In this document: positions 1,090 to 18,309 of the stretch, in pieces
How the letters are laid out: each line of letters starts with the position of its first letter
Position numbering within the stretch: position 1 is the first letter of the stretch
Origin: Promethearchaeota archaeon
GTDB lineage: Archaea > Asgardarchaeota > Odinarchaeia > Odinarchaeales > JBHLKK01
NCBI GenBank assembly: GCA_048939465.1
Contig: JBHLPL010000027.1
Span: forward strand, 1 to 19,592
Reading direction: 5' to 3'
Length of the DNA: 19,592 bases
Notes under the pieces: model-generated
The model's input: the letters and a program-made list of their open reading frames with translations, nothing else
Database searches by the model: none
What the model was told of the DNA's origin: nothing
Made by a program: the position numbers and the translations under genes

Positions 1090-3264
1090 CTATGCTATTT
1101 CCAACAATCTTTTTTTCAATTTACTGGCGGTGTCAGCTAACACTTTCAAGTCAAGCGTTGATGAAATACAGCCAATTGCGTGAACAACTTCGCTGATCCG
1201 GCCCAAGACATGCTCCAAATCACCTATATCAACGATATGGGGAGACGCATCTTTTCCTCGAATCCTACTCGAAATGAATTCGAAGGCATTTCCTTCTGAG
1301 GGCCTTAAATCCCTCAAATTATCCTTGGCTAGCTTGATGGCCAAATCAAGAATCTCCTCAGACGATTCGACTTCATTTGAGAGGACTTCCGTCTTTATCT
1401 GAGCTGCCAGTCTGGGCCCTATCCCAAGTCTTGCCACCATGTTGCCGAGTTCCGTACACTTATAGACATCTCCTTTTTGTGCGATGAAATCGGATCCAAT
1501 TAGGAAATCCAGTATTGTCTGTCTTCCGAGAGATCGCGGGATAACGTTTATGGCATAATCCCTCAGGCCTTTGCTTTCCAATGCAAAGTGTGTGAGTTTG
1601 ATGAGGTGTTTGCACAATTTGCTTTCAAGTCTTGCCCTAAACCTCCAGTGTTCACAGCTGCAGGAGGGGCCTTCCGACGTATCAAGAATCACTGAATAGT
1701 AAAGACTCTTAGTTGTACTTCTGATTCTGGCTTCGATTCTGCCGGGATGCGAGTCCATCACCTCGACGTATCTGTCTGGTATCATCATAGCTCTTCGTCG
1801 AACAGATTGGCCAGAATGCTCTTTGATTAATTCATCGATATCTTTTCTATCCAATTTTGCCAATTCTTTGATAGGCTTACCTTCCCTACGTCTTCTAAAC
1901 CACCAAAACGTTTTCCTGAAGGAATCGACTATTCTCTCCTCAGACGCGCCTTGGGGCTCGAATATCTCCAGCAAGGCCATTTCTTGAAGCGTTTCTTCAT
2001 CACCAATGCTACTTTCAATATCATTGTATTTTGGATGTAACTTCCCTTCTCGATCTCTTCTGAAGTACCTATCAATGATTAAATTCTGCTCATATTTGTC
2101 CGTAGCTAATACGATTCCGTATCCCTTAACGTCATATTTCGGCTTTCCCACTCTGCTTAAGATCCTATGAACGCAATTTGGGCTGAGCTCAACGAGTATA
2201 GGAACCGAAGAGACATTCTTCCAAGAAGAGAGCGTTGACGAAGTGTCTTTCAAAATGACAAGGCGTGCAGCCGTATTGATGCTGGAACCTACCTCTGTTG
2301 AGCAAGTTACAACCTTTATTAATCCTTCCTTAAATCCCTCCGTGATGCCTTCTCGTTCATCTGCAGAAAGACCTTCATGATGAAAGGCCACACCATTCAA
2401 CACGAGATCAGCTAGCAGCCTTGATGAATAGCTTATCCTATCCTGAAACTCCTCAGAGAGCTTTTCTGCTTTTGCGCTCTCTTCCAGAGTTAAAAGGGGA
2501 CCTATTGCGCCCTTTAAATTGGCTGCTGTCTTCCTGGCCTCATTTCGGTCCGAAAGATAAACAAGGACTTGACCTCCTTGTTCCACCATGTTTGAAGAGA
2601 GTGTAACAATGGAGTCGTCCTTGCTTGGAGTTAAAACCACGCTCAGTTCAACCGGAACTGGTGGATCCGTAACGTCTATCGGGATACACTCAAGCCACTT
2701 AGCCAGTTCGTAGGGGTTTCCAATATTGGAGCTGAGACATACGAGCTGAAGCCTAGGCAATCTATCCCTAAGACGGATGATAATGCTCTCAAGGAATACG
2801 CCATACCTTTCGTCGCTCAAGACATAGGTTTCATCAATTATGGCTGTCACGATGCTTTTTATCCACGGGGAGTTTTTCCTTAGAGACTTGTCGAATTGGT
2901 TAAATGTTAGAATGATTATGTTCGCAGGTTCGAGGATGACTTCATCGTCTTCTCCAGATGCTATTTCTAGCCCTAATTTCGTATATTTTCTTCTGAACTC
3001 ATCAAGTTTTTCGCGTGCAAGAGCTCTTAGAGGAGTCAAGTAGATTACTTTAGCTTTAGGAGCTGTAAGAGTCATTTGAAGGGCGACAAGTTCTCCGATA
3101 AGCGTTTTTCCACTGGCAGATGGTGAGGTAACCATTATGCTGCTTCCTCTCAGAAGGCCAGACTTGATTGCCTCAATTTGCAACGGCCGTAATTCCTCTA
3201 TCCCTTCCTTCCGGAGGATTTGGATTATTCTCTCATCAGCTCCTGCCTTCTCCAACGTCTCCAA
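1090..3264 (-). CDS. Hel308/Ski2-like SF2 helicase paralog with degenerate ATPase motifs and inserted SWIM zinc finger
   Basis: Q motif LRPLQIEAI, Walker A SPSASGKT, Ia PLRALAREK, GNPYELAKWL, GVAFHHEGL, winged-helix signatures KTFWW and FI...YKCTELG. CSCx15CKH SWIM motif at 1606-1662. TTG start with GGAGG 9 nt upstream. Confidence 0.85.
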   Translation of the reverse strand: METLEKAGADERIIQILRKEGIEELRPLQIEAIKSGLLRGSSIMVTSPSASGKTLIGELVALQMTLTAPKAKVIYLTPLRALAREKLDEFRRKYTKLGLEIASGEDDEVILEPANIIILTFNQFDKSLRKNSPWIKSIVTAIIDETYVLSDERYGVFLESIIIRLRDRLPRLQLVCLSSNIGNPYELAKWLECIPIDVTDPPVPVELSVVLTPSKDDSIVTLSSNMVEQGGQVLVYLSDRNEARKTAANLKGAIGPLLTLEESAKAEKLSEEFQDRISYSSRLLADLVLNGVAFHHEGLSADEREGITEGFKEGLIKVVTCSTEVGSSINTAARLVILKDTSSTLSSWKNVSSVPILVELSPNCVHRILSRVGKPKYDVKGYGIVLATDKYEQNLIIDRYFRRDREGKLHPKYNDIESSIGDEETLQEMALLEIFEPQGASEERIVDSFRKTFWWFRRRREGKPIKELAKLDRKDIDELIKEHSGQSVRRRAMMIPDRYVEVMDSHPGRIEARIRSTTKSLYYSVILDTSEGPSCSCEHWRFRARLESKLCKHLIKLTHFALESKGLRDYAINVIPRSLGRQTILDFLIGSDFIAQKGDVYKCTELGNMVARLGIGPRLAAQIKTEVLSNEVESSEEILDLAIKLAKDNLRDLRPSEGNAFEFISSRIRGKDASPHIVDIGDLEHVLGRISEVVHAIGCISSTLDLKVLADTASKLKKRLLEIA

Positions 3265-7817: not shown

Positions 7818-8072
7818 ATGGTTAAAATCGAGAAAAGAGACGGGAGAAGTGAAGATTTCGTTGCAGAAAAGGTTGTCGTCAGCGCCGTAAAGAGTGGAGC
7901 CTCTGCCGAAGTTGCTCGGAAGATGGCAGAGGAGATTGAGGGCAGAGTGAAAGAGGGTACGTCTACAAAAGAGATCAAAAGAATGGTCTTGGAAATGCTC
8001 AGGAAGAGAAACCCAGAGTGGGAAAAGAACTGGCTCATCTACGACAGGGCAGTCAAAAAAAGAACTGAATAA
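7818..8072 (+). CDS. Stand-alone ATP-cone domain protein (84 aa)
   Basis: MVKIEKRDGRSEDF...EKVVVS (VxKRDG signature), TSTKEIKRMVLEML; strong RBS. Confidence 0.85.
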   Translation: MVKIEKRDGRSEDFVAEKVVVSAVKSGASAEVARKMAEEIEGRVKEGTSTKEIKRMVLEMLRKRNPEWEKNWLIYDRAVKKRTE

Positions 8073-10779: not shown

Positions 10780-11187
10780 TCATCTGCGTCTTCGTCTTCT
10801 CCTTCGGATTACTTCATCGCCCCGATAGATGTAGTAGGTTTTTCTTTTCCTTGTCTTTCTCCTGCCTATTTCGTCAACATGTAGAAAGATATCTTCAGCT
10901 GCTACGTCCGCATGCTTTTTCTTCGAGCCGGGTTTACCTATGTGTATTATGCTTTCTGCAAGCCAACGCGGTTTCTTATCCAACTTGATCGTCAGTTTCT
11001 TTGTCTTAAGGAAACCTTTACGAGCGTCAATGATTTCACCGCGCAGAACCACTGGTTCGCCGCTTTCTGTCCAAGTACCCTCGATCTCTGCGTCTACATC
11101 CCATTTTGCCCTGTCCTCATAACGCTTATACCAATCAATGGCCTTCTCCAACTCATCGCCGCTGAAATATTCTTTCGGACGAGACAT
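10780..11187 (-). CDS. Basic hypothetical protein (135 aa) resembling the TrmB C-terminal beta subdomain, with poly-Arg tail
   Basis: ATG 11187 preceded by GGGGTGA. AEIEGTWTESGEPVVLRGEIID...IHIGKPG...DVAAEDIFL pattern; C-terminal R8. Confidence 0.65.
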   Translation of the reverse strand: MSRPKEYFSGDELEKAIDWYKRYEDRAKWDVDAEIEGTWTESGEPVVLRGEIIDARKGFLKTKKLTIKLDKKPRWLAESIIHIGKPGSKKKHADVAAEDIFLHVDEIGRRKTRKRKTYYIYRGDEVIRRRRRRRR

Positions 11188-11328
11188 TAGCTCACCCCAA
11201 ACGGTTTTGTGTTGATTATCATAGTATTTGAATAAAAAGGTTTGTATTTCCTTTTTAAATAAGCACATCTTGTAGTAGATTTAGAGGCCGCAGAACAAAA
11301 GAGGCCTCAGATTTGCTTACGTAAGCTG

Positions 11329-13215
11329 ATGGCACACGTTAAGTTTTTTAGCACGTATTTTCAAGCTGTTAGAAAACGGGGAAAAAAGATGTTCCTCATT
11401 ATGCTAGCATCTGTGGGTGTCATTATTTTCTGGATTCCTACCACGTTATCTAACTGGACGGTGCTCATAAGTGGAACATATCCTGCAGGACCTGCGGGAG
11501 GACGGGGGCAAGAGTTCGAGCACAACAGACTTATGGCCATAAAGTATGTCATGTTTTCGATTATTGGTTTTACCAGGCTTGCACTTGCTATTGTCTTCAT
11601 GGCCATAGTGCCGATATTCATTCTAATGTTGACTATTCCTCTGTATGTTTTGTACATTCTATCTGCCAGAATCGTCTTTTACGGTATCGGAGCCATTATT
11701 CACTCTGTTAGAAAGCTGGGAAGAAGATCGACCATAGCTTTTGGGGTATTGCTCATTGTTACGCCGGTCTTCTTTTTTGGGGTATTCAGCCAGATTCAGC
11801 AGGTTTCGAATGCATACTATTTCAGCAATAATTTCGTTGTTGCTCAGACCGGAAATCTGTTCGATTCTCAAATTTCACCGAATCTTGTTCGACTCATAAC
11901 CCCTGAATTGGCTTGGTCAATCGCCGAACAAAGAATGGCTGAATTTGGCAGCAATATGGAAGTTAAATCGATCCACATAACAAAAAGGAACAGCACTCTT
12001 GTCTGGGTAGCGGCCATTGGCTCAACAAATGTAATAGCCGAAAACTATATCGCGGGATTAGTGGTGATCAGTGCGAACGATCCGACATCTTCTCCCGAGG
12101 TTTTGCATATTCAGTTTGGAATCGGTGAGAATCTATTTTGGACCGCGGATTCTGTTTTTGGAAGCTACCTAAGGGACCCTCAGTACCTGTACGGAAGAGC
12201 CTACATAACATGGCATGCTGGTCAACCTGTTCTTGTCCAGACAAGGTATGAGATTGGTTATGATCTGGTCTCTCGTGCCAAAGGAGTCATAGTGTATGAT
12301 ATAGAAGGAGCAAAGACAGGAGAGTATGCAGCAGATAGTATTCCAAGTTGGATTACCCAACCTTGGGACGAGTATTGGCTTGTTGATCACGTGTCTCGAT
12401 GGGGAGACCTAAGAAGAGGCGATGGTTTTGACTTCTGGGCGGGAGGATTTCTATTTTTCATAGCACCTAGCAGAGATCGGGTTGTCATTTCCGAAACGCC
12501 TCGATTCATCGTCAACCCAGATACCAATGATGTTGACGCCCTCATTTTTGTCCATCCAGCGACCTCAGATAGAACACTCGCAGGAGTGTTTAAAGCAACA
12601 AGGAGTGGAATCTATTATCATGATTACAGATTTGAAAACTACATAAGTGGAATAACAGCAGAAGACCTGATAGAGAGTAAAGTCACTCAGCCGGCTCAAG
12701 GCAGATACTACGCTTCTATGCCAATGCTTTATCCACTAAGTATATCGCCTTCAGAAACCAGACTAGTGTGGTATGTACCACTATACTGGCAGGAGGGGGT
12801 CTATGCGGAGGGGGGATTCATCCCGGGAAATACGATCGCATTTGCTGGCTTGGGTCTCATTGACGCAAAGGATATTAGCTATGCTGTGCTGAAAACAGAC
12901 ATTGAGGGCATGGACGGTGAGGCTACCATAACAACAACTCAAAATGAATTCATCGCTCTATATAGCAAACTTACCAATCTAACGATAACAGTCACTGTAA
13001 GCAACGTTTCGAGCTATGAACTCGACGGAGATACTCATGTTGTCCTAGGTACGAACAATACGCAGTATCCCTATGTGGAAGGTGCTGCAGGAGATTTGAC
13101 AGCTCTTGAATGGTATGAGCTGCTTCAGACAGTTCCTGGTGATACAGTCACGGCGACAATAATGAAGGTTGGAGACCTGTGGAGAATAATTCAGTTTGAT
13201 AACCATGACATATAG
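11329..13215 (+). CDS. Membrane-anchored protein with large extracytoplasmic domain (uncharacterised family)
   Basis: Three to four N-terminal hydrophobic segments, then about 470 aa of soluble beta-rich sequence with several N-x-S/T sequons (NST, NLT, NVS, NNT). Start uncertain (11329, 11389 or later). Confidence 0.75.
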   Translation: MAHVKFFSTYFQAVRKRGKKMFLIMLASVGVIIFWIPTTLSNWTVLISGTYPAGPAGGRGQEFEHNRLMAIKYVMFSIIGFTRLALAIVFMAIVPIFILMLTIPLYVLYILSARIVFYGIGAIIHSVRKLGRRSTIAFGVLLIVTPVFFFGVFSQIQQVSNAYYFSNNFVVAQTGNLFDSQISPNLVRLITPELAWSIAEQRMAEFGSNMEVKSIHITKRNSTLVWVAAIGSTNVIAENYIAGLVVISANDPTSSPEVLHIQFGIGENLFWTADSVFGSYLRDPQYLYGRAYITWHAGQPVLVQTRYEIGYDLVSRAKGVIVYDIEGAKTGEYAADSIPSWITQPWDEYWLVDHVSRWGDLRRGDGFDFWAGGFLFFIAPSRDRVVISETPRFIVNPDTNDVDALIFVHPATSDRTLAGVFKATRSGIYYHDYRFENYISGITAEDLIESKVTQPAQGRYYASMPMLYPLSISPSETRLVWYVPLYWQEGVYAEGGFIPGNTIAFAGLGLIDAKDISYAVLKTDIEGMDGEATITTTQNEFIALYSKLTNLTITVTVSNVSSYELDGDTHVVLGTNNTQYPYVEGAAGDLTALEWYELLQTVPGDTVTATIMKVGDLWRIIQFDNHDI

Positions 13216-13267: not shown

Positions 13268-13975
13268 ATGGATTTTGAAATGGGAAAGATGACGTGGTGT
13301 GAGGTTAAGGAATCGATAAGGAACGAAAAAGGAGTTATAGTTCCGATAGGGGCTTTGGAAGAGCACGGACCGCATCTTCCCTTGATTACTGATACGGCTT
13401 TGGCGTGGGGAGTTGCTAAACTTGCTGCAGAGAAGACTGGGTTTCTCGTTATGCCCCCTCTCTTCCTCGGAGTCTGCAGAACAACACGAACTTTTCCTGG
13501 AACGATTTCCATAGGATTCGTAACTCTGAAGAGACTCACAGAAGATATTTTGGAAGAGCTAGCTTCCCAAGGGTTTAAGAAGACTGTTTTGTTCTCATGG
13601 CATGCGGGAAAAAGTCATAGTGCAGCCTTAAGAGAGGCCACATTTGAAACCAAGTTAAGATACAAGGAATTGGATCTTTACTTAATAGTTAGTTCTGAGC
13701 TTTGGAGTGAGGTCGAAAAACTTCTTGAGACGAAACCTTTTCATGCAGGAGAGCTTGAAACATCATTAATGCTGGTTGTTCAACCTGAATTAGTGAAGAT
13801 GGATAGGGCAGTAGAAGAGTACCCAACGGTCCCGCCCTACAGAATTAAGACTACAGGGAAACCTTGGATGCGATCTGGTGTTGTGGGAAATGCAACGTTA
13901 GCTTCTGCAGAAAAAGGAAAAGAGCTGCTTGAAATCATAGTAGACAAGCTTGTTGACATTCTAGAATCTTTCTAG
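13268..13975 (+). CDS. Creatininase/creatinine amidohydrolase family metalloenzyme (ArfB/MftE-related family)
   Basis: MTWxEV, VPIGALEEHGPHLPLITD, PGTISI, HAGELETS, GVVGNATLASAEKG. Start reassigned to ATG 13268 (GGAGATGA upstream). Confidence 0.9.
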   Translation: MDFEMGKMTWCEVKESIRNEKGVIVPIGALEEHGPHLPLITDTALAWGVAKLAAEKTGFLVMPPLFLGVCRTTRTFPGTISIGFVTLKRLTEDILEELASQGFKKTVLFSWHAGKSHSAALREATFETKLRYKELDLYLIVSSELWSEVEKLLETKPFHAGELETSLMLVVQPELVKMDRAVEEYPTVPPYRIKTTGKPWMRSGVVGNATLASAEKGKELLEIIVDKLVDILESF

Positions 13976-13979
13976 TCAA

Positions 13980-14627
13980 TCACTTCAGGTAGCCTTTTGC
14001 TTCTTTGGCCCACTTCTTCAATCTCTCCGCCGAGATTCCTGTTTCCTCTGCTATAATGTCGGTATCCATATTGACAAGATCTTCAAGGGATAATATTCCA
14101 AAATCAATCAGTTTTTTGGCAATAGCCGTTCCGAGACCTTTAAGTGCCGTAAGCATCTCGATTGCCTCAGCCTCTATTTCTTCTTCACCGATCTCTTTTT
14201 CAGCTTTGACCTCTTCTTTTCCGGGCCTTCTCTTTGGTGGCTTCTTTTTGGGTTTTCTTTTGACTCTTTTCTCGGGCTTCTTTGCCGGCTTCTTTGTCTC
14301 TTCTTCTTCCCTCTCTACCTTCTCAGCCTTCCTGATCTTTCTCGGCTTCTTCTCCTTTTTCGGCTTCGCCTTCAGTCTCGGTTTTCTGACTTTCTTTTCG
14401 CCTTCGGTTTCCAGAGTCTCCTTTATTCTCTTTAGATATTCTTTCAGTCGATCTATATTTGCTTCGTTGACAGTTTTCCTTCTTCTGTCAATGGGGATAG
14501 TCATCCATTTGGCTTCATTAACAGTAATATCTGCTTTCTGAAGTTCAGTCAGGCTAAACCCTCGGCCCAGTCTCTTGTTATCTCTGTCGGCCGGAGACTT
14601 AACAAAAGGTCTCAGAGTATCCTTCAT
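13980..14627 (-). CDS. rpl13e: Ribosomal protein eL13 (L13e) fused to Lys/Glu-rich linker and C-terminal (HhH)2 domain
   Basis: RLGRGFSLTEL...IPIDRRRKTV..ANIDRLK is the eL13 core; LTALKGLGTAIAKKL..GI.SLEDL...GIS is HhH-type. ATG 14627 with AAGGTG upstream. Confidence 0.85.
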   Translation of the reverse strand: MKDTLRPFVKSPADRDNKRLGRGFSLTELQKADITVNEAKWMTIPIDRRRKTVNEANIDRLKEYLKRIKETLETEGEKKVRKPRLKAKPKKEKKPRKIRKAEKVEREEEETKKPAKKPEKRVKRKPKKKPPKRRPGKEEVKAEKEIGEEEIEAEAIEMLTALKGLGTAIAKKLIDFGILSLEDLVNMDTDIIAEETGISAERLKKWAKEAKGYLK

Positions 14628-14676
14628 TCTACACACCTTTGAAAGCTAAACCGTTATGACTCACTAAATCATGCAC

Positions 14677-14684
14677 TATAAAAA
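14677..14684 (-). promoter_or_regulatory. TATA box for rpl13e
   Basis: Minus strand GATAAGC-TTTTTATA about 50 nt upstream of the ATG, directly after the upstream gene's stop. Confidence 0.5.
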
Positions 14685-14689
14685 GCTTA

Positions 14690-15676
14690 TCAAATCAGCT
14701 TTATTCGTAATCCCCTTTTCTGTTTTGTTGCATTTTCGTAGACAAGCCAAGCGGCAGCGGCATCTTGAATTGCCAATCCAACACTCTTAAAAACGGTTAT
14801 CTCCTTTGAATCCTCCCTTCCTTTCTTCTTGCCCGTGATGATTTCCCCAAGTTCAGCATAAATGTGCTTTTCACTAATTTCTTTCTGCCTTATTGGAATC
14901 ATGATGTCACCTGCTTCTGCCAATGCTGCTTCTCTAGAATCAACGACGATTTTGGATTTCCTTATGGTTTTTGTGTCAAGCTCTCTTGTTCCAGGAGTAA
15001 AGGCTCCGATAGCATTTATGTGGGTGCCTTCCTTGAGCCAGTCTCCATCAAGAACTGGCACTGTGGATGTAGAGGCAGTGCAAATAATATCAGCCCCCTT
15101 AATAGCTTCCCTACTATTCCTTACAGGCTCGACAGATATGCCGAGACTTTGAGACATTTCCATGGCAAAACTACTACTTGCTCTTGGCCGAATATCATAC
15201 ACCTTTGCTTTCTCGATATTCCTCACCGCGCACAAAGCCTGAAGCTGGGTTCTAGCTTGTGTGCCTGCCCCAATAATAGCGGCTACCGAGGCGTCTTTTC
15301 TGGCCAGATGTTTTGTGGCAACACCGCTTGCAGCTCCAGTTCTTATTGCCGTAAGATAGGCACCGTCCATGATTGCCAGGGGAGTCCCTGTCTTGGGGTC
15401 AATCAGAATAACTAATGCAGAGACTGTAGGGAGCTTATGTTTGATAGGATTATTCGGGTACACCGAAACTGTCTTTAAAGCCAGACTTCCCATGCCAGAA
15501 AGATACGACGGCATAAACAAGACTACCCCGTCATGCCTTTCCGACTCAATTGACTGCCTCAGTGGGAGGACTGTTGTTTTATTTGTCAGCTCAGTAAAGG
15601 CCTTTTCAATCATTTTTATAGCTTCATTCATGTCCAGGAGGAATTTCACGTCCGCTTGAGTTAGAATAACCACCAT
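14690..15676 (-). CDS. Ornithine cyclodeaminase/mu-crystallin family protein (archaeal alanine dehydrogenase candidate)
   Basis: LFMPSY, LKTVSVYPNN, LTAIRTGAASGVAT, IIGAGTQARTQ, ADIICTAS, HINAIGA...ELD, FKSVGLAIQD. Confidence 0.92.
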   Translation of the reverse strand: MVVILTQADVKFLLDMNEAIKMIEKAFTELTNKTTVLPLRQSIESERHDGVVLFMPSYLSGMGSLALKTVSVYPNNPIKHKLPTVSALVILIDPKTGTPLAIMDGAYLTAIRTGAASGVATKHLARKDASVAAIIGAGTQARTQLQALCAVRNIEKAKVYDIRPRASSSFAMEMSQSLGISVEPVRNSREAIKGADIICTASTSTVPVLDGDWLKEGTHINAIGAFTPGTRELDTKTIRKSKIVVDSREAALAEAGDIMIPIRQKEISEKHIYAELGEIITGKKKGREDSKEITVFKSVGLAIQDAAAAWLVYENATKQKRGLRIKLI

Positions 15677-15727
15677 AAGAATCCCTCTGAACCTTCCTTC
15701 TAATCAGGCTGTTATTGAATTCGGTTG

Positions 15728-16777
15728 TTAATGAGGTCTCTTAGCCATTTCCAGCCGGTTCATGCTGTCTTCTATTATTCCCAAAGATACCTTTTGCTGA
15801 TCAATTGTGATTGCCATTTTTGGCGATAAATAGGCTATTTTTGCCAGTTCGAAGATATTCGGAAAACGCTTGTCGTAATCTTCTTCCCAACGAATGTGGT
15901 CCTCAACCGTCAGATGATTTTCAAACAGAAGCGTGTTGTATCTTCCTAAGCTAATCCTTAGAGCAATAGGAATGTGAGGATCTGCCTTTAGTTCCTCCAA
16001 TGCCTTCTTATTCTCTCTGATCGCTGCCAACACATACACTAACAGATAGTTGGGAGGGACGAAGAAATTGGGGAATCTGCAGATAGGAGGCAAGATGACT
16101 CCTTCGTTTGTCAAGTGGGATATCCTCCTGAAAACTGTTTTCCGGTGGATTCCCAGCGTTTTCGATAGATAGCTTTCATTGACTCCTATGCCTTCGCCTC
16201 GAATTAGGGTTCCCAATACCTGAATGCTCGTTTCATCAAACCGAAAACCGTTAATCTCCAGCTCTCCTTTTTCGCTGAATCTTTCTTCTATCAGTTTTAT
16301 GGCAGCATTAGGTGAATATTTCATCATTCTTTTGGTAGTAAAAAACGAGGGAAACGAAGGCTTTCTAGTTGCTCTCGACGGGATCTTGTTCTCCTCGACG
16401 AGCGATTCCCTCCATACCATGTATTGATGAATATCCTTGTGGAATTGAAAAAGAATGGTATTGTGTTCTTCTGATTTGAACTTGAAAGCAGCGAAAATGT
16501 GTTTATCATTTACAATCCAATCATGAATCTTCTTTTCGTTTGGCAGATCTGCGCGGACAACAACCAGAAGCGGATATACTTCGTATAATCCCATGAATGG
16601 GCATATCGGTCTGTCGAGTATTCTTTGAGAGAAAAGCGCCTCAACTCTGTTTCTTATAGTATTTCTATGTCGCCCAAGCTTTTTTGAAAGATAGCTGAGA
16701 TTGACATTTACGCCTCTGCCGGAGCACAGTTCCTTTAATAGTAGCAGGTTTAACTTGTTTCTTAGCAATTCTTTCAT
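15728..16777 (-). CDS. Tandem-duplicated Lrp/AsnC-like (wHTH + RAM/ACT-like) transcriptional regulator
   Basis: Two internal repeats: VNLSYLSKKLGRHRNTIRNRVEAL..PIC.F..NTILF..W and VNESYLSKTLGIHRKTVFRRISHL..PIC.F..NTLLF..W. Confidence 0.72.
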   Translation of the reverse strand: MKELLRNKLNLLLLKELCSGRGVNVNLSYLSKKLGRHRNTIRNRVEALFSQRILDRPICPFMGLYEVYPLLVVVRADLPNEKKIHDWIVNDKHIFAAFKFKSEEHNTILFQFHKDIHQYMVWRESLVEENKIPSRATRKPSFPSFFTTKRMMKYSPNAAIKLIEERFSEKGELEINGFRFDETSIQVLGTLIRGEGIGVNESYLSKTLGIHRKTVFRRISHLTNEGVILPPICRFPNFFVPPNYLLVYVLAAIRENKKALEELKADPHIPIALRISLGRYNTLLFENHLTVEDHIRWEEDYDKRFPNIFELAKIAYLSPKMAITIDQQKVSLGIIEDSMNRLEMAKRPH

Positions 16778-16800
16778 GAGCGTGCATATATTTTGCTAAT

Positions 16801-16815
16801 TTTATATATTTTTCT
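16801..16815 (-). promoter_or_regulatory. BRE/TATA of the tandem regulator (leaderless)
   Basis: Minus strand CAGAAAAA-TATATAAA ending 24 nt before ATG 16777; no RBS upstream of that ATG. Confidence 0.6.
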
Positions 16816-16979
16816 GTGCCAAAAATTCCTATTACTGACAAAGGATGACCGAGTTCATTATGTTTTATTTATCATAGATTTTTATACAAAATTGCTAATC
16901 TTGTTTAACTGCTACTGCAATATTGTTGTAGGGAACCTTGAGACCAAAATGTGTCAAGACCTCGACTTGAAGCAAATGA

Positions 16980-17045
16980 TTTATAAACATAAAGTATATA
17001 TCCAACTTTCCCTTCAAGCCAATCTTAATCAAAATAACCTGGAGG
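16980..17045 (+). promoter_or_regulatory. gdhA promoter and RBS
   Basis: TTTATAAA at 16980-16987 (alternative TATA-like GTATATA near 16994-17000); GGAGG at 17041-17045, 7 nt before ATG 17053. Confidence 0.55.
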
Positions 17046-17052
17046 AAGTAAG

Positions 17053-18309
17053 ATGTCTAGAAGTAAAATAGATCCATATGATGTTGCCCTGGAGCAGCTA
17101 GAAATAGCCGCTAATATGCTAAAACTGGAACCGTGGATACATGAAAATCTTAAACAGCCAAAGAGAATATTGACAGTATCTGTTCCTGTGAAAATGGACA
17201 GCGGCGACGTAAAGGTCTTCACGGGCTATAGAGTGCAACACAACGATGCCCGGGGTCCACACAAAGGGGGAATCAGATATCATCCAGATGTGACACTCAG
17301 TGAAGTCAAGGCTTTAGCGATGTGGATGACCTGGAAATGTGCGGTTTTGGATGTTCCACTTGGGGGAGGAAAAGGAGGAATAATCTGCAATCCAAAGCAA
17401 ATGTCTCAGAGCGAAATTGAGCGAATGAGCAGACGATACTTCTACATGATCATGGATATAATAGGTCCGCGCAGAGACATCCCAGCACCAGACGTTTACA
17501 CAAATCCACAGACCATGGCGTGGATGATGGACACCTACAGCATGGTTAAGAGAAAGCCCGTTTTTGAGATCATCACAGGAAAGCCCCTTACCGTACAAGG
17601 ATCAGAAGGAAGAAATGAGGCAACTTCGCGTGGCGCTTTATTCTGTACAAGGGAAGCAGTTAGAAGGACCATGAATTCAGGTCTAAAAGGTTTGAAAGCG
17701 TCTGTCCAGGGCTATGGAAATGTTGGATGGAATGCTGCCAAGCTACTACATGAAGAGGGCGTCAAGATTTTGGCAGTCAGCGACTCCAGAGGCGGAATAT
17801 TCAATGCCGATGGTCTTGACCCTGTAAAAGTCTACGAACATAAGAAGGAAACTGGCTCCGTCGTGGACTTCCCTGGCACTGACAGAATTACAAACGAAGA
17901 AGTCCTTGAAGTAGATTGCGACGTCCTAGTTCCGGCTGCCCTTGAGAATCAAATAACGAAAGCAAATGCAGACAGAATCAAGGCAAAGGTGGTTGTTGAG
18001 GGAGCCAATGGACCCACATCACCAGAAGCCGACCAGATACTCCATGAACGCGAAGCTTTAGTCGTTCCAGATATTCTGGCAAATGCCGGCGGTGTAACGG
18101 TTAGCTACTTTGAATGGGTACAAAACCTATACCGGGAGTACTGGCCTGAGGACCAAGTCAACGCTAAGCTCGAGGCAAAGATCGTAAAATCGTTCAATGA
18201 CACATATGAAATCCTTCAAAATCATAAGGTTAACATGAGGACAGCTGCCTTAATGCTAGGTGTTGGGAGAGTAGCGGAAGCAATGAAAACACGTGGGATC
18301 TGGCCATGA
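17053..18309 (+). CDS. gdhA: Glu/Leu/Phe/Val dehydrogenase family, glutamate dehydrogenase
   Basis: [68 protein letters not shown]. Confidence 0.96.

Follow-up and report, generated by a model that had tools for sequence, protein, structure and literature searches.

Ribosomal protein eL13 carries a tethered (HhH)2 domain in many Asgard archaea and in Hydrothermarchaeales

An Asgard archaeon of the same order as Ca. Odinarchaeum yellowstonii encodes an eL13 whose core is joined by a long charged linker to a C-terminal (HhH)2 domain of the RAD51-N/RadA-N/NusA-AR type, and the same arm recurs on eL13 in most of the Asgard families sampled and in Hydrothermarchaeales. We put at roughly one half the probability that this arm acts as a low-specificity nucleic-acid grip on the surface of the 50S subunit, a function whose binding activity and target we infer. 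The gene occupies positions 14627..13980 (-) of the window, that is, of the whole 19,592-nucleotide stretch of DNA that was analysed, and its ORF translates into 215 aa. Residues 1-70 (14418..14627 (-)) form the eL13 core, as assigned by Pfam PF01294, NCBIfam NF008914, alignment and fold match. They are followed by a basic K/E/R/P linker (residues ~71-137, 14217..14417 (-), net charge about +21), predicted to be disordered from its pLDDT of 42-62 and its composition, and by an acidic segment (residues 138-156, 14160..14216 (-), net -7), which by composition and in the AlphaFold2 model is partly a predicted helix running into the HhH. The (HhH)2 domain itself (residues 157-215, 13983..14159 (-)) is supported by Pfam PF14520, the model, fold match and dN/dS; the TGA stop codon lies at 13980..13982 (-), and a creatininase-family gene, convergent with the eL13 gene, ends at 13975. 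In the AlphaFold2 model of the full protein, the core reaches pLDDT 87-95 and the C-terminal domain ~90, with residues ~81-145 disordered (42-62). The architecture that an earlier note had read from the bare sequence, an eL13 core, a K/E/R/P linker and a double HhH, was borne out by Pfam, NCBIfam and AlphaFold2. The same holds for its flexible arm, given the disorder of the linker in the model, and for the long linker followed by an acidic stretch, since K, E, R and P make up 79% of residues 70-137.

Several lines of evidence identify the N-terminal part as eL13. The Pfam model Ribosomal_L13e (PF01294) matches at 51.8 bits against a cut-off of 24.9, although this match partly extends into the low-complexity linker; taken by itself, the core gives a match to NCBIfam NF008914 at E 7.5e-18, and the NCBIfam L13e match spans residues 10-70. 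At 63.9 bits the protein stays below the 96-bit cut-off of the NCBIfam equivalog PRK12277, a threshold without discriminating power in the Asgard phylum, because 0/400 Asgard genomes reach it. The core motif G-x-G-F..E..D-x-R-R..N is present, with G21, G23, F24, E28, D47, R49, R50 and N57 invariant in the alignment, and the core model superposes on the eL13 chains of ribosome structures with an rmsd of about 2-3 Å over ~70 residues (2.0 Å over 72 columns for yeast eL13, 7ohv_L). Matches to eL13 occur in 284 of the 400 genomes of the Asgard phylum, nearly always singly. No second eL13 was found in the source genome, which is 91% complete, so that the objection that a canonical eL13 elsewhere might be the ribosomal copy fails. 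The suspicion that the fusion might be an assembly artefact fails as well: the fusion is intact in both same-genus genomes, in five close proteins at 70-99% identity and on a contig from a separate study, which covers the gene without gaps and with 8 substitutions. Another contig spans the whole stretch with 1 difference and may be the same source DNA. The second strain differs by three amino-acid changes (residues 111, 127 and 136), all within the linker. From knowledge of the family, eL13-HhH is probably the working eL13 of the cell, with its core seated in the 50S as usual. The N-terminal part of eL13 is buried in the 50S (bioRxiv 2021.01.31.429008), and the C-terminus would be the exposed end.

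As had been noted, the gene stands outside a ribosomal operon, and so did every eL13 locus inspected, with or without an HhH; the stand-alone position is the norm for Asgard eL13 regardless of the arm. A TATA-box-like TTTTTATA of putative function lies at 14677..14684 (-), 50-57 nt upstream of the ATG, and a Shine-Dalgarno-like AGGTGT, seen in the sequence at 14633..14638 (-), is kept in both other same-genus genomes. The TTTTTATA and the AGGTG site retain the same spacing in 3/3 genomes of the genus; in the whole window, TTTWWATA is found just 5 times. The suggestion that the gene has its own TATA holds in that the TATA-like box is kept in the genus, but the T-run of TTTTTATA comes right behind the stop codon of the ornithine cyclodeaminase/alanine dehydrogenase-family gene upstream and could also be a terminator, and the eL13 gene may be co-transcribed with that neighbour; a sigma-70 promoter scan is unsuited to archaea.

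The region upstream on the same strand (14690-18309 (-)) holds a glutamate dehydrogenase-like gene, a tandem duplicated HTH regulator and the ornithine cyclodeaminase/alanine dehydrogenase-family gene, in an order kept in a same-genus genome. Next to the eL13 locus, and conserved there in the genus, lies a gene for a probable membrane protein of 628 aa that neither Pfam nor NCBIfam matches (11329-13215 (+)). Elsewhere in the window we observed a Hel308/Ski2-like helicase (1090-3264 (-)), whose family match stops near residue 460 and in which a CxC...CxH region, by eye a SWIM-like zinc finger, replaces the usual C-terminal domains; a stand-alone ATP-cone domain protein (7818-8072 (+)); and a 162-aa protein with a seven-arginine run at its end and no confident family (10780-11268 (-)).

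A stand-alone gene with a conserved TATA-like box would suit an extra-ribosomal role, in which free eL13 or a clipped HhH domain acts on DNA or mRNA, for autoregulation or in chromatin, while the arm stays idle on the ribosome. Such a role would also be in keeping with the loss of eL13 in whole lineages, matches being nearly absent from three large Asgard families (f4, f14 and f22, with 1/31, 0/12 and 0/22 genomes, respectively), and with a linker that, being exposed, would be open to proteases. We nevertheless consider it unlikely: arm-less eL13 genes are equally stand-alone, and the fact that HhH domains have been fused repeatedly, to several different ribosomal proteins, speaks for a function on the ribosome. 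Heimdallarchaeota have been listed as lacking eL13 (PMC9932298).

The C-terminal domain is matched by Pfam HHH_5 (PF14520) at residues 157-211 (40.6 bits, cut-off 27) and, modelled alone, forms five helices at pLDDT 93. Its fold is closest to the RAD51-family N-domain (VIA Z 9.7, rmsd 1.5 Å, 60 aligned) and, tied with it, to NusA AR1/AR2 (VIA Z 9.0 and 8.7, rmsd 1.6-1.7 Å), and the natural sequence that the eL13-HhH family profile matches best is NusA AR1+AR2 (E 2e-10 summed). Profile comparison and fold match therefore both confirm the likeness to RadA/Rad51-N and NusA AR domains that had been proposed. Mitoribosomal proteins also appeared as candidate fold relatives, at a Z of 5.4-5.8 that is under the reliable range, and were not used.

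With respect to its motifs, the domain only partly matches its description as a double HhH: hairpin 1 (K163-G-L-G166) has the canonical G-h-G (G164-L-G166), but hairpin 2 (T196-G-I-S199) reads G197-I-S199. Canonical DNA-binding (HhH)2 domains have G-h-G in both hairpins. The second Gly of hairpin 2 is found in 0/34 eL13 domains, all 34 checked being of the G-I-S type, and that of hairpin 1 is kept in 12/24 Asgard domains; hairpin 1 is intact in the source protein and in 10/10 Hydrothermarchaeales domains. Judged by these residues, the eL13 HhH is not a canonical DNA clamp and instead has the hairpin pattern of RAD51-N/NusA-AR. The residue R202 maps to K70 of RAD51, a mapping inferred from equal-length spans (profile 10-60 on 1b22 32-82), and the RAD51 K64 position is Thr. 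A K/R at the R202 position or one before is found in 21/24 Asgard and 9/10 Hydrothermarchaeales domains (30/34), and K70 of RAD51 is needed for nucleosome binding (PMC10990931), but a conserved K/R near a helix start is common and counts as weak evidence. The net charge of the HhH is -1 in the source protein, with a median of +2 among 128 homologs and about -7 in the C-terminal copies of eL32; the eL13 domain is not strongly acidic as the NusA acidic repeats are.

Within the family, identity is higher in the HhH (87-92%) than in the core (78-81%) and dN/dS is lower (0.035-0.046 vs 0.08-0.10). The HhH is therefore under selection, and this purifying selection is stronger than that on the eL13 core. 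Phylum-wide, conservation is found mainly at hydrophobic-core positions; W206 is conserved. A homodimer prediction scored 0.00, which speaks neither for nor against dimerisation. An origin as a recent copy of the HhH of the genome's own RadA or eL33 is not supported, a weak tree of 57 columns placing those in a separate group.

These data bear on the possibility that the arm is a protein-docking device like NusA AR1/AR2, which would recruit an RNase, helicase, chaperone, translation factor or assembly factor to the 50S. The partners of the NusA acidic repeats include lambda N. More generally the NusA ARs bind proteins, AR2 binding alphaCTD and SuhB (PMC6614801), and docking would agree with the profile match and fold tie described above, with the eroded G-h-G, the neutral or acidic charge and the conserved W206, and with the very strong conservation of the HhH within the genus, which fits a defined interface. 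That phylum-wide conservation concerns mainly the hydrophobic core speaks against docking, as does the replacement of the module by unrelated folds in close relatives and its presence, in 1-15 copies, on many unrelated proteins. In addition, similar modules are attached to either terminus of eL32 and to the N-terminus of eL33 and match the bL21/uS2 fusion models, which argues against one fixed docking partner. We regard docking as the main rival of a nucleic-acid grip, possible if on the unlikely side.

The arm is widespread. Across 40 sampled Asgard relatives and the source genome, at least one HhH is present on 20/28 eL13, in 12/14 families, with 1 to 4 copies per eL13. Carriers identified by name include archaea of the Thor, Jord, Freya, Baldr and Wukong groups and, in culture, Promethearchaeum syntrophicum, whose protein (QEE16476) is annotated as hypothetical; Odinarchaeum eL13 has a Lys-rich tail only and no HhH. 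No HhH was found on eL13 at about 60 sampled Thermoproteota loci, where the protein is short or ends in an eL15-like basic tail. This tail was observed in Thermoproteales, Thermofilaceae and some Bathyarchaeia (L175, L176, L156, L183, L203, L208), and it matches Pfam L15e at E 8e-5 in 2/3 tested, under the cut-off; the idea that the tail of Thermoproteales eL13 is the eukaryotic eL13 extension was rejected, as it resembles the eL15 end.

The one profile match outside Asgard and Thermoproteota is to Hydrothermarchaeales, a non-TACK, non-Asgard lineage that NCBI places in Methanobacteriati. Here, eL13 is found in 21/35 genomes (L224-L243, G400-G433), and 12/20 examined carry the same C-terminal HhH, the rest having Lys/Ala/Pro tails or being short. 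These eL13-HhH genes mostly lie beside the same downstream membrane-protein gene, one of them on a 1.9-Mb contig, and they rule out an Asgard-specific fusion; a 62-column core tree is compatible with both transfer and shared ancestry. We also saw eL13 in two MAGs labelled Bacteroidia (L151, L153), which are probably mis-binned archaeal contigs. The survey of eL13 architectures by lineage that had been recommended thus qualifies the premise that the typical archaeal eL13 is short, which describes most Thermoproteota but not Asgard archaea and Hydrothermarchaeales, in which the arm is the majority form. Reviews state that euryarchaea have no eL13 (PMC9932298; bioRxiv 2021.01.31.429008), and its presence in Hydrothermarchaeota (kingdom Methanobacteriati) qualifies that statement.

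About 88 aa separate the end of the core from the HhH in the source protein, whereas the median linker among 128 homologs, a Thor-heavy sample, is 22 aa, with fewer than 30 aa in 108/128. The 88-aa linker is an outlier in a gene that is otherwise typical of the widespread type, and with a median of 22 aa the shared function therefore needs little reach. This weakens the earlier lead that the arm might be a specific bridge to RNA polymerase for transcription-translation coupling, a proposal that would be consistent with the likeness of the fold to NusA AR2, a binder of the RNA polymerase alphaCTD, and with the long linker of the source protein. To our knowledge, archaeal RNA polymerase has no alphaCTD. 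Moreover, expressome coupling factors connect the small subunit, at its mRNA entry, with RNA polymerase, the known route running through uS10 and uS3/uS4 (PMC8116511), whereas eL13 is a large-subunit protein. Ribosomes and DNA were seen 50-280 nm apart in Loki/Heimdall cells (PMC8776820), the arm is missing in Odinarchaeum and in all sampled Thermoproteota, and the terminal module is exchangeable. Given the short usual linker and the large-subunit location, specific RNA-polymerase coupling is very unlikely.

The eL13 arm is an exchangeable accessory. Within the Promethearchaeum family (Loki), eL13 ends in an HhH in five genomes and in other modules in others (L042, L045, L216, L219, L222). The end is a winged-helix-like domain unrelated to HhH in 3/3 of the genus Harpocratesius and a SAP/Rho_N-like part without HhH in L. 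ossiferum (atlas 0.78), the names of these swapped-in folds being leads only at atlas scores < 0.9, and one Promethearchaeum-family eL13 ends in a duplicated ~35-aa unit. Lys-rich tails form the HhH-less ends not only in Odinarchaeum but also in some Hydrothermarchaeales. In Asgard family f17 we observed another helical end domain of ~100 aa with no confident Pfam match (L037:1093-1725 (-), L039:1123-1743 (-)).

Related modules are found on further proteins. Among relatives, Jord/Freya have the HhH at the C-terminus of eL32 and Thor-type genomes have 2-4 copies at its N-terminus; the N-terminal modules (Thor eL32, eL33, RadA) and the eL13-type C-terminal modules form separate groups (SH-aLRT 92, 57 columns, weak tree). 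The HhH profile also matches, in 1-15 copies, Mrr-type nucleases, membrane proteins and many unknown proteins. The sole eL33 match of the source genome (L006:737-1435 (+), contig C151) carries at its N-terminus an (HhH)2 domain, both hairpins of which have the canonical glycines, together with a basic linker, and an N-terminal HhH on eL33 is also found in a same-genus genome, in Odinarchaeum and in two families without eL13 matches. An unknown protein on contig C16 (L004:931-1749 (-)) combines an HhH, closely related to that of the same genome's eL33 (SH-aLRT 98), with roughly seven repeats of 9 aa and a C-terminus that is helical. By eye, HhH arrays also occur on an apparent RNA polymerase beta-prime C-terminus and on phasin-like and Yip1-like membrane proteins (P0224, P0144, P0229, P0245), with no Pfam confirmation of these carriers at E 1e-4.

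That eL33, also an HhH carrier, adjoins ES39 (PMC7594248) and that short linkers suggest a nearby target would be compatible with a structural clamp on the supersized rRNA expansion segments ES9/ES39 of Asgard archaea. However, Thor, Freya and Hydrothermarchaeales carry the arm despite small or no supersized segments, ES39 of Thor, Odin and Freya being only 50-60 nt and non-Asgard archaea having no supersized segments (PMC7594248), and L. ossiferum has large segments but no HhH. The distribution of the arm does not fit such a clamp, which we consider highly improbable and rejected.

Comparison with known systems places the protein more precisely. Other archaeal and eukaryotic eL13 (PF01294; PRK12277; P. 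calidifontis 9E6Q chain AH; yeast L13) share its core motifs, fold, single copy and stand-alone gene, but the source protein has in addition the disordered leash and the (HhH)2, and eukaryotic chains match the core only. Haloarchaeal eL32 (Haloarcula marismortui 1JJ2/1S72, residues ~15-57; 9L94 chain Q; PRK12766) is likewise a large-subunit protein with an (HhH)2 and a charged linker, and the eL13-HhH profile matches the HhH of Haloarcula eL32 at E 2.2e-6; it differs in its carrier, in the N-terminal position of the HhH and in its acidic linker, and the tree of N- and C-terminal modules contains no haloarchaeal sequence. The C-terminal fusion forms of bacterial bL21 (PRK12278) and uS2 (PRK12311) also append an HhH-like domain to a ribosomal protein, and their models are matched by 4-5/13 eL13-HhH family members (best E 3.5e-5 and 3.4e-3), but the carriers are bacterial, the fusion is independent and the similarity to the eL13 HhH is weak; we know of no established function for the bacterial domain. 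With HhH domains recorded on eL32, bL21 and uS2 in NCBIfam and PDB, tethered HhH domains on ribosomal proteins are a known kind at database level. Databases label HhH-fused eL13 as L13e or hypothetical, with a precomputed Pfam architecture, and we found no paper on it in a search whose coverage was thin for subscription journals. The RAD51/RadA N-domain shares with the eL13 HhH the fold, the G-I-S second hairpin and the basic residue at the K70 position, but eL13 has no recombinase core or filament, and its HhH belongs to a subfamily distinct from the genome's own RadA. Finally, NusA AR1/AR2 (TIGR01954) share the fold, the C-terminal tether and the eroded G-h-G, whereas the eL13 domain is not markedly acidic and is tethered to the ribosome.

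Where the HhH is absent from eL13, its slot is filled by basic or probably nucleic-acid-binding parts, and the module hops between carriers and termini; we therefore favour the nucleic-acid grip. The RAD51/RadA-N and NusA AR domains as closest solved folds, R202 at the K70 position and the intact first hairpin of the source protein and of the Hydrothermarchaeales domains count in its favour. The missing second Gly of hairpin 2 and its incomplete retention in hairpin 1 of Asgard domains count against it, as do the source HhH, which is not basic, and the equal closeness in fold of the protein-binding NusA ARs. In the mechanism we propose, the eL13 C-terminus would lead via a floppy leash to a RAD51-N-type (HhH)2 domain, which, close to the surface of the large subunit, would hold the backbone of duplex nucleic acid weakly and independently of sequence, with the basic linker adding electrostatic affinity. 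[quoted passage not shown] The arm would be an accessory rather than a stereospecific adaptor.

Among prokaryotes, Asgard archaea offer the closest models of the ribosome ancestral to the eukaryotic one, and the only Asgard ribosome structure that we found in the literature is a map at 11.7 Å (PMC9834061). At least one flexible HhH arm appears to be present on most Asgard ribosomes, and we found no paper that describes it. We offer as a speculation that tethered HhH arms may be an ancient, repeatedly re-attached accessory by which large subunits are anchored to other nucleic acid, be it mRNA, the chromosome or adjacent ribosomes, and translation is thereby organised in the cell. The eL13 form, common to Asgard archaea and Hydrothermarchaeota, would go back to deep ancestry or to an early transfer; the eukaryotic eL13 chains matched do not show it. 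Since P. syntrophicum is in culture and has the arm, the question of what it does is testable now, and the answer would also explain the long-known, so far unexplained HhH domains on haloarchaeal eL32 and bacterial bL21/uS2.
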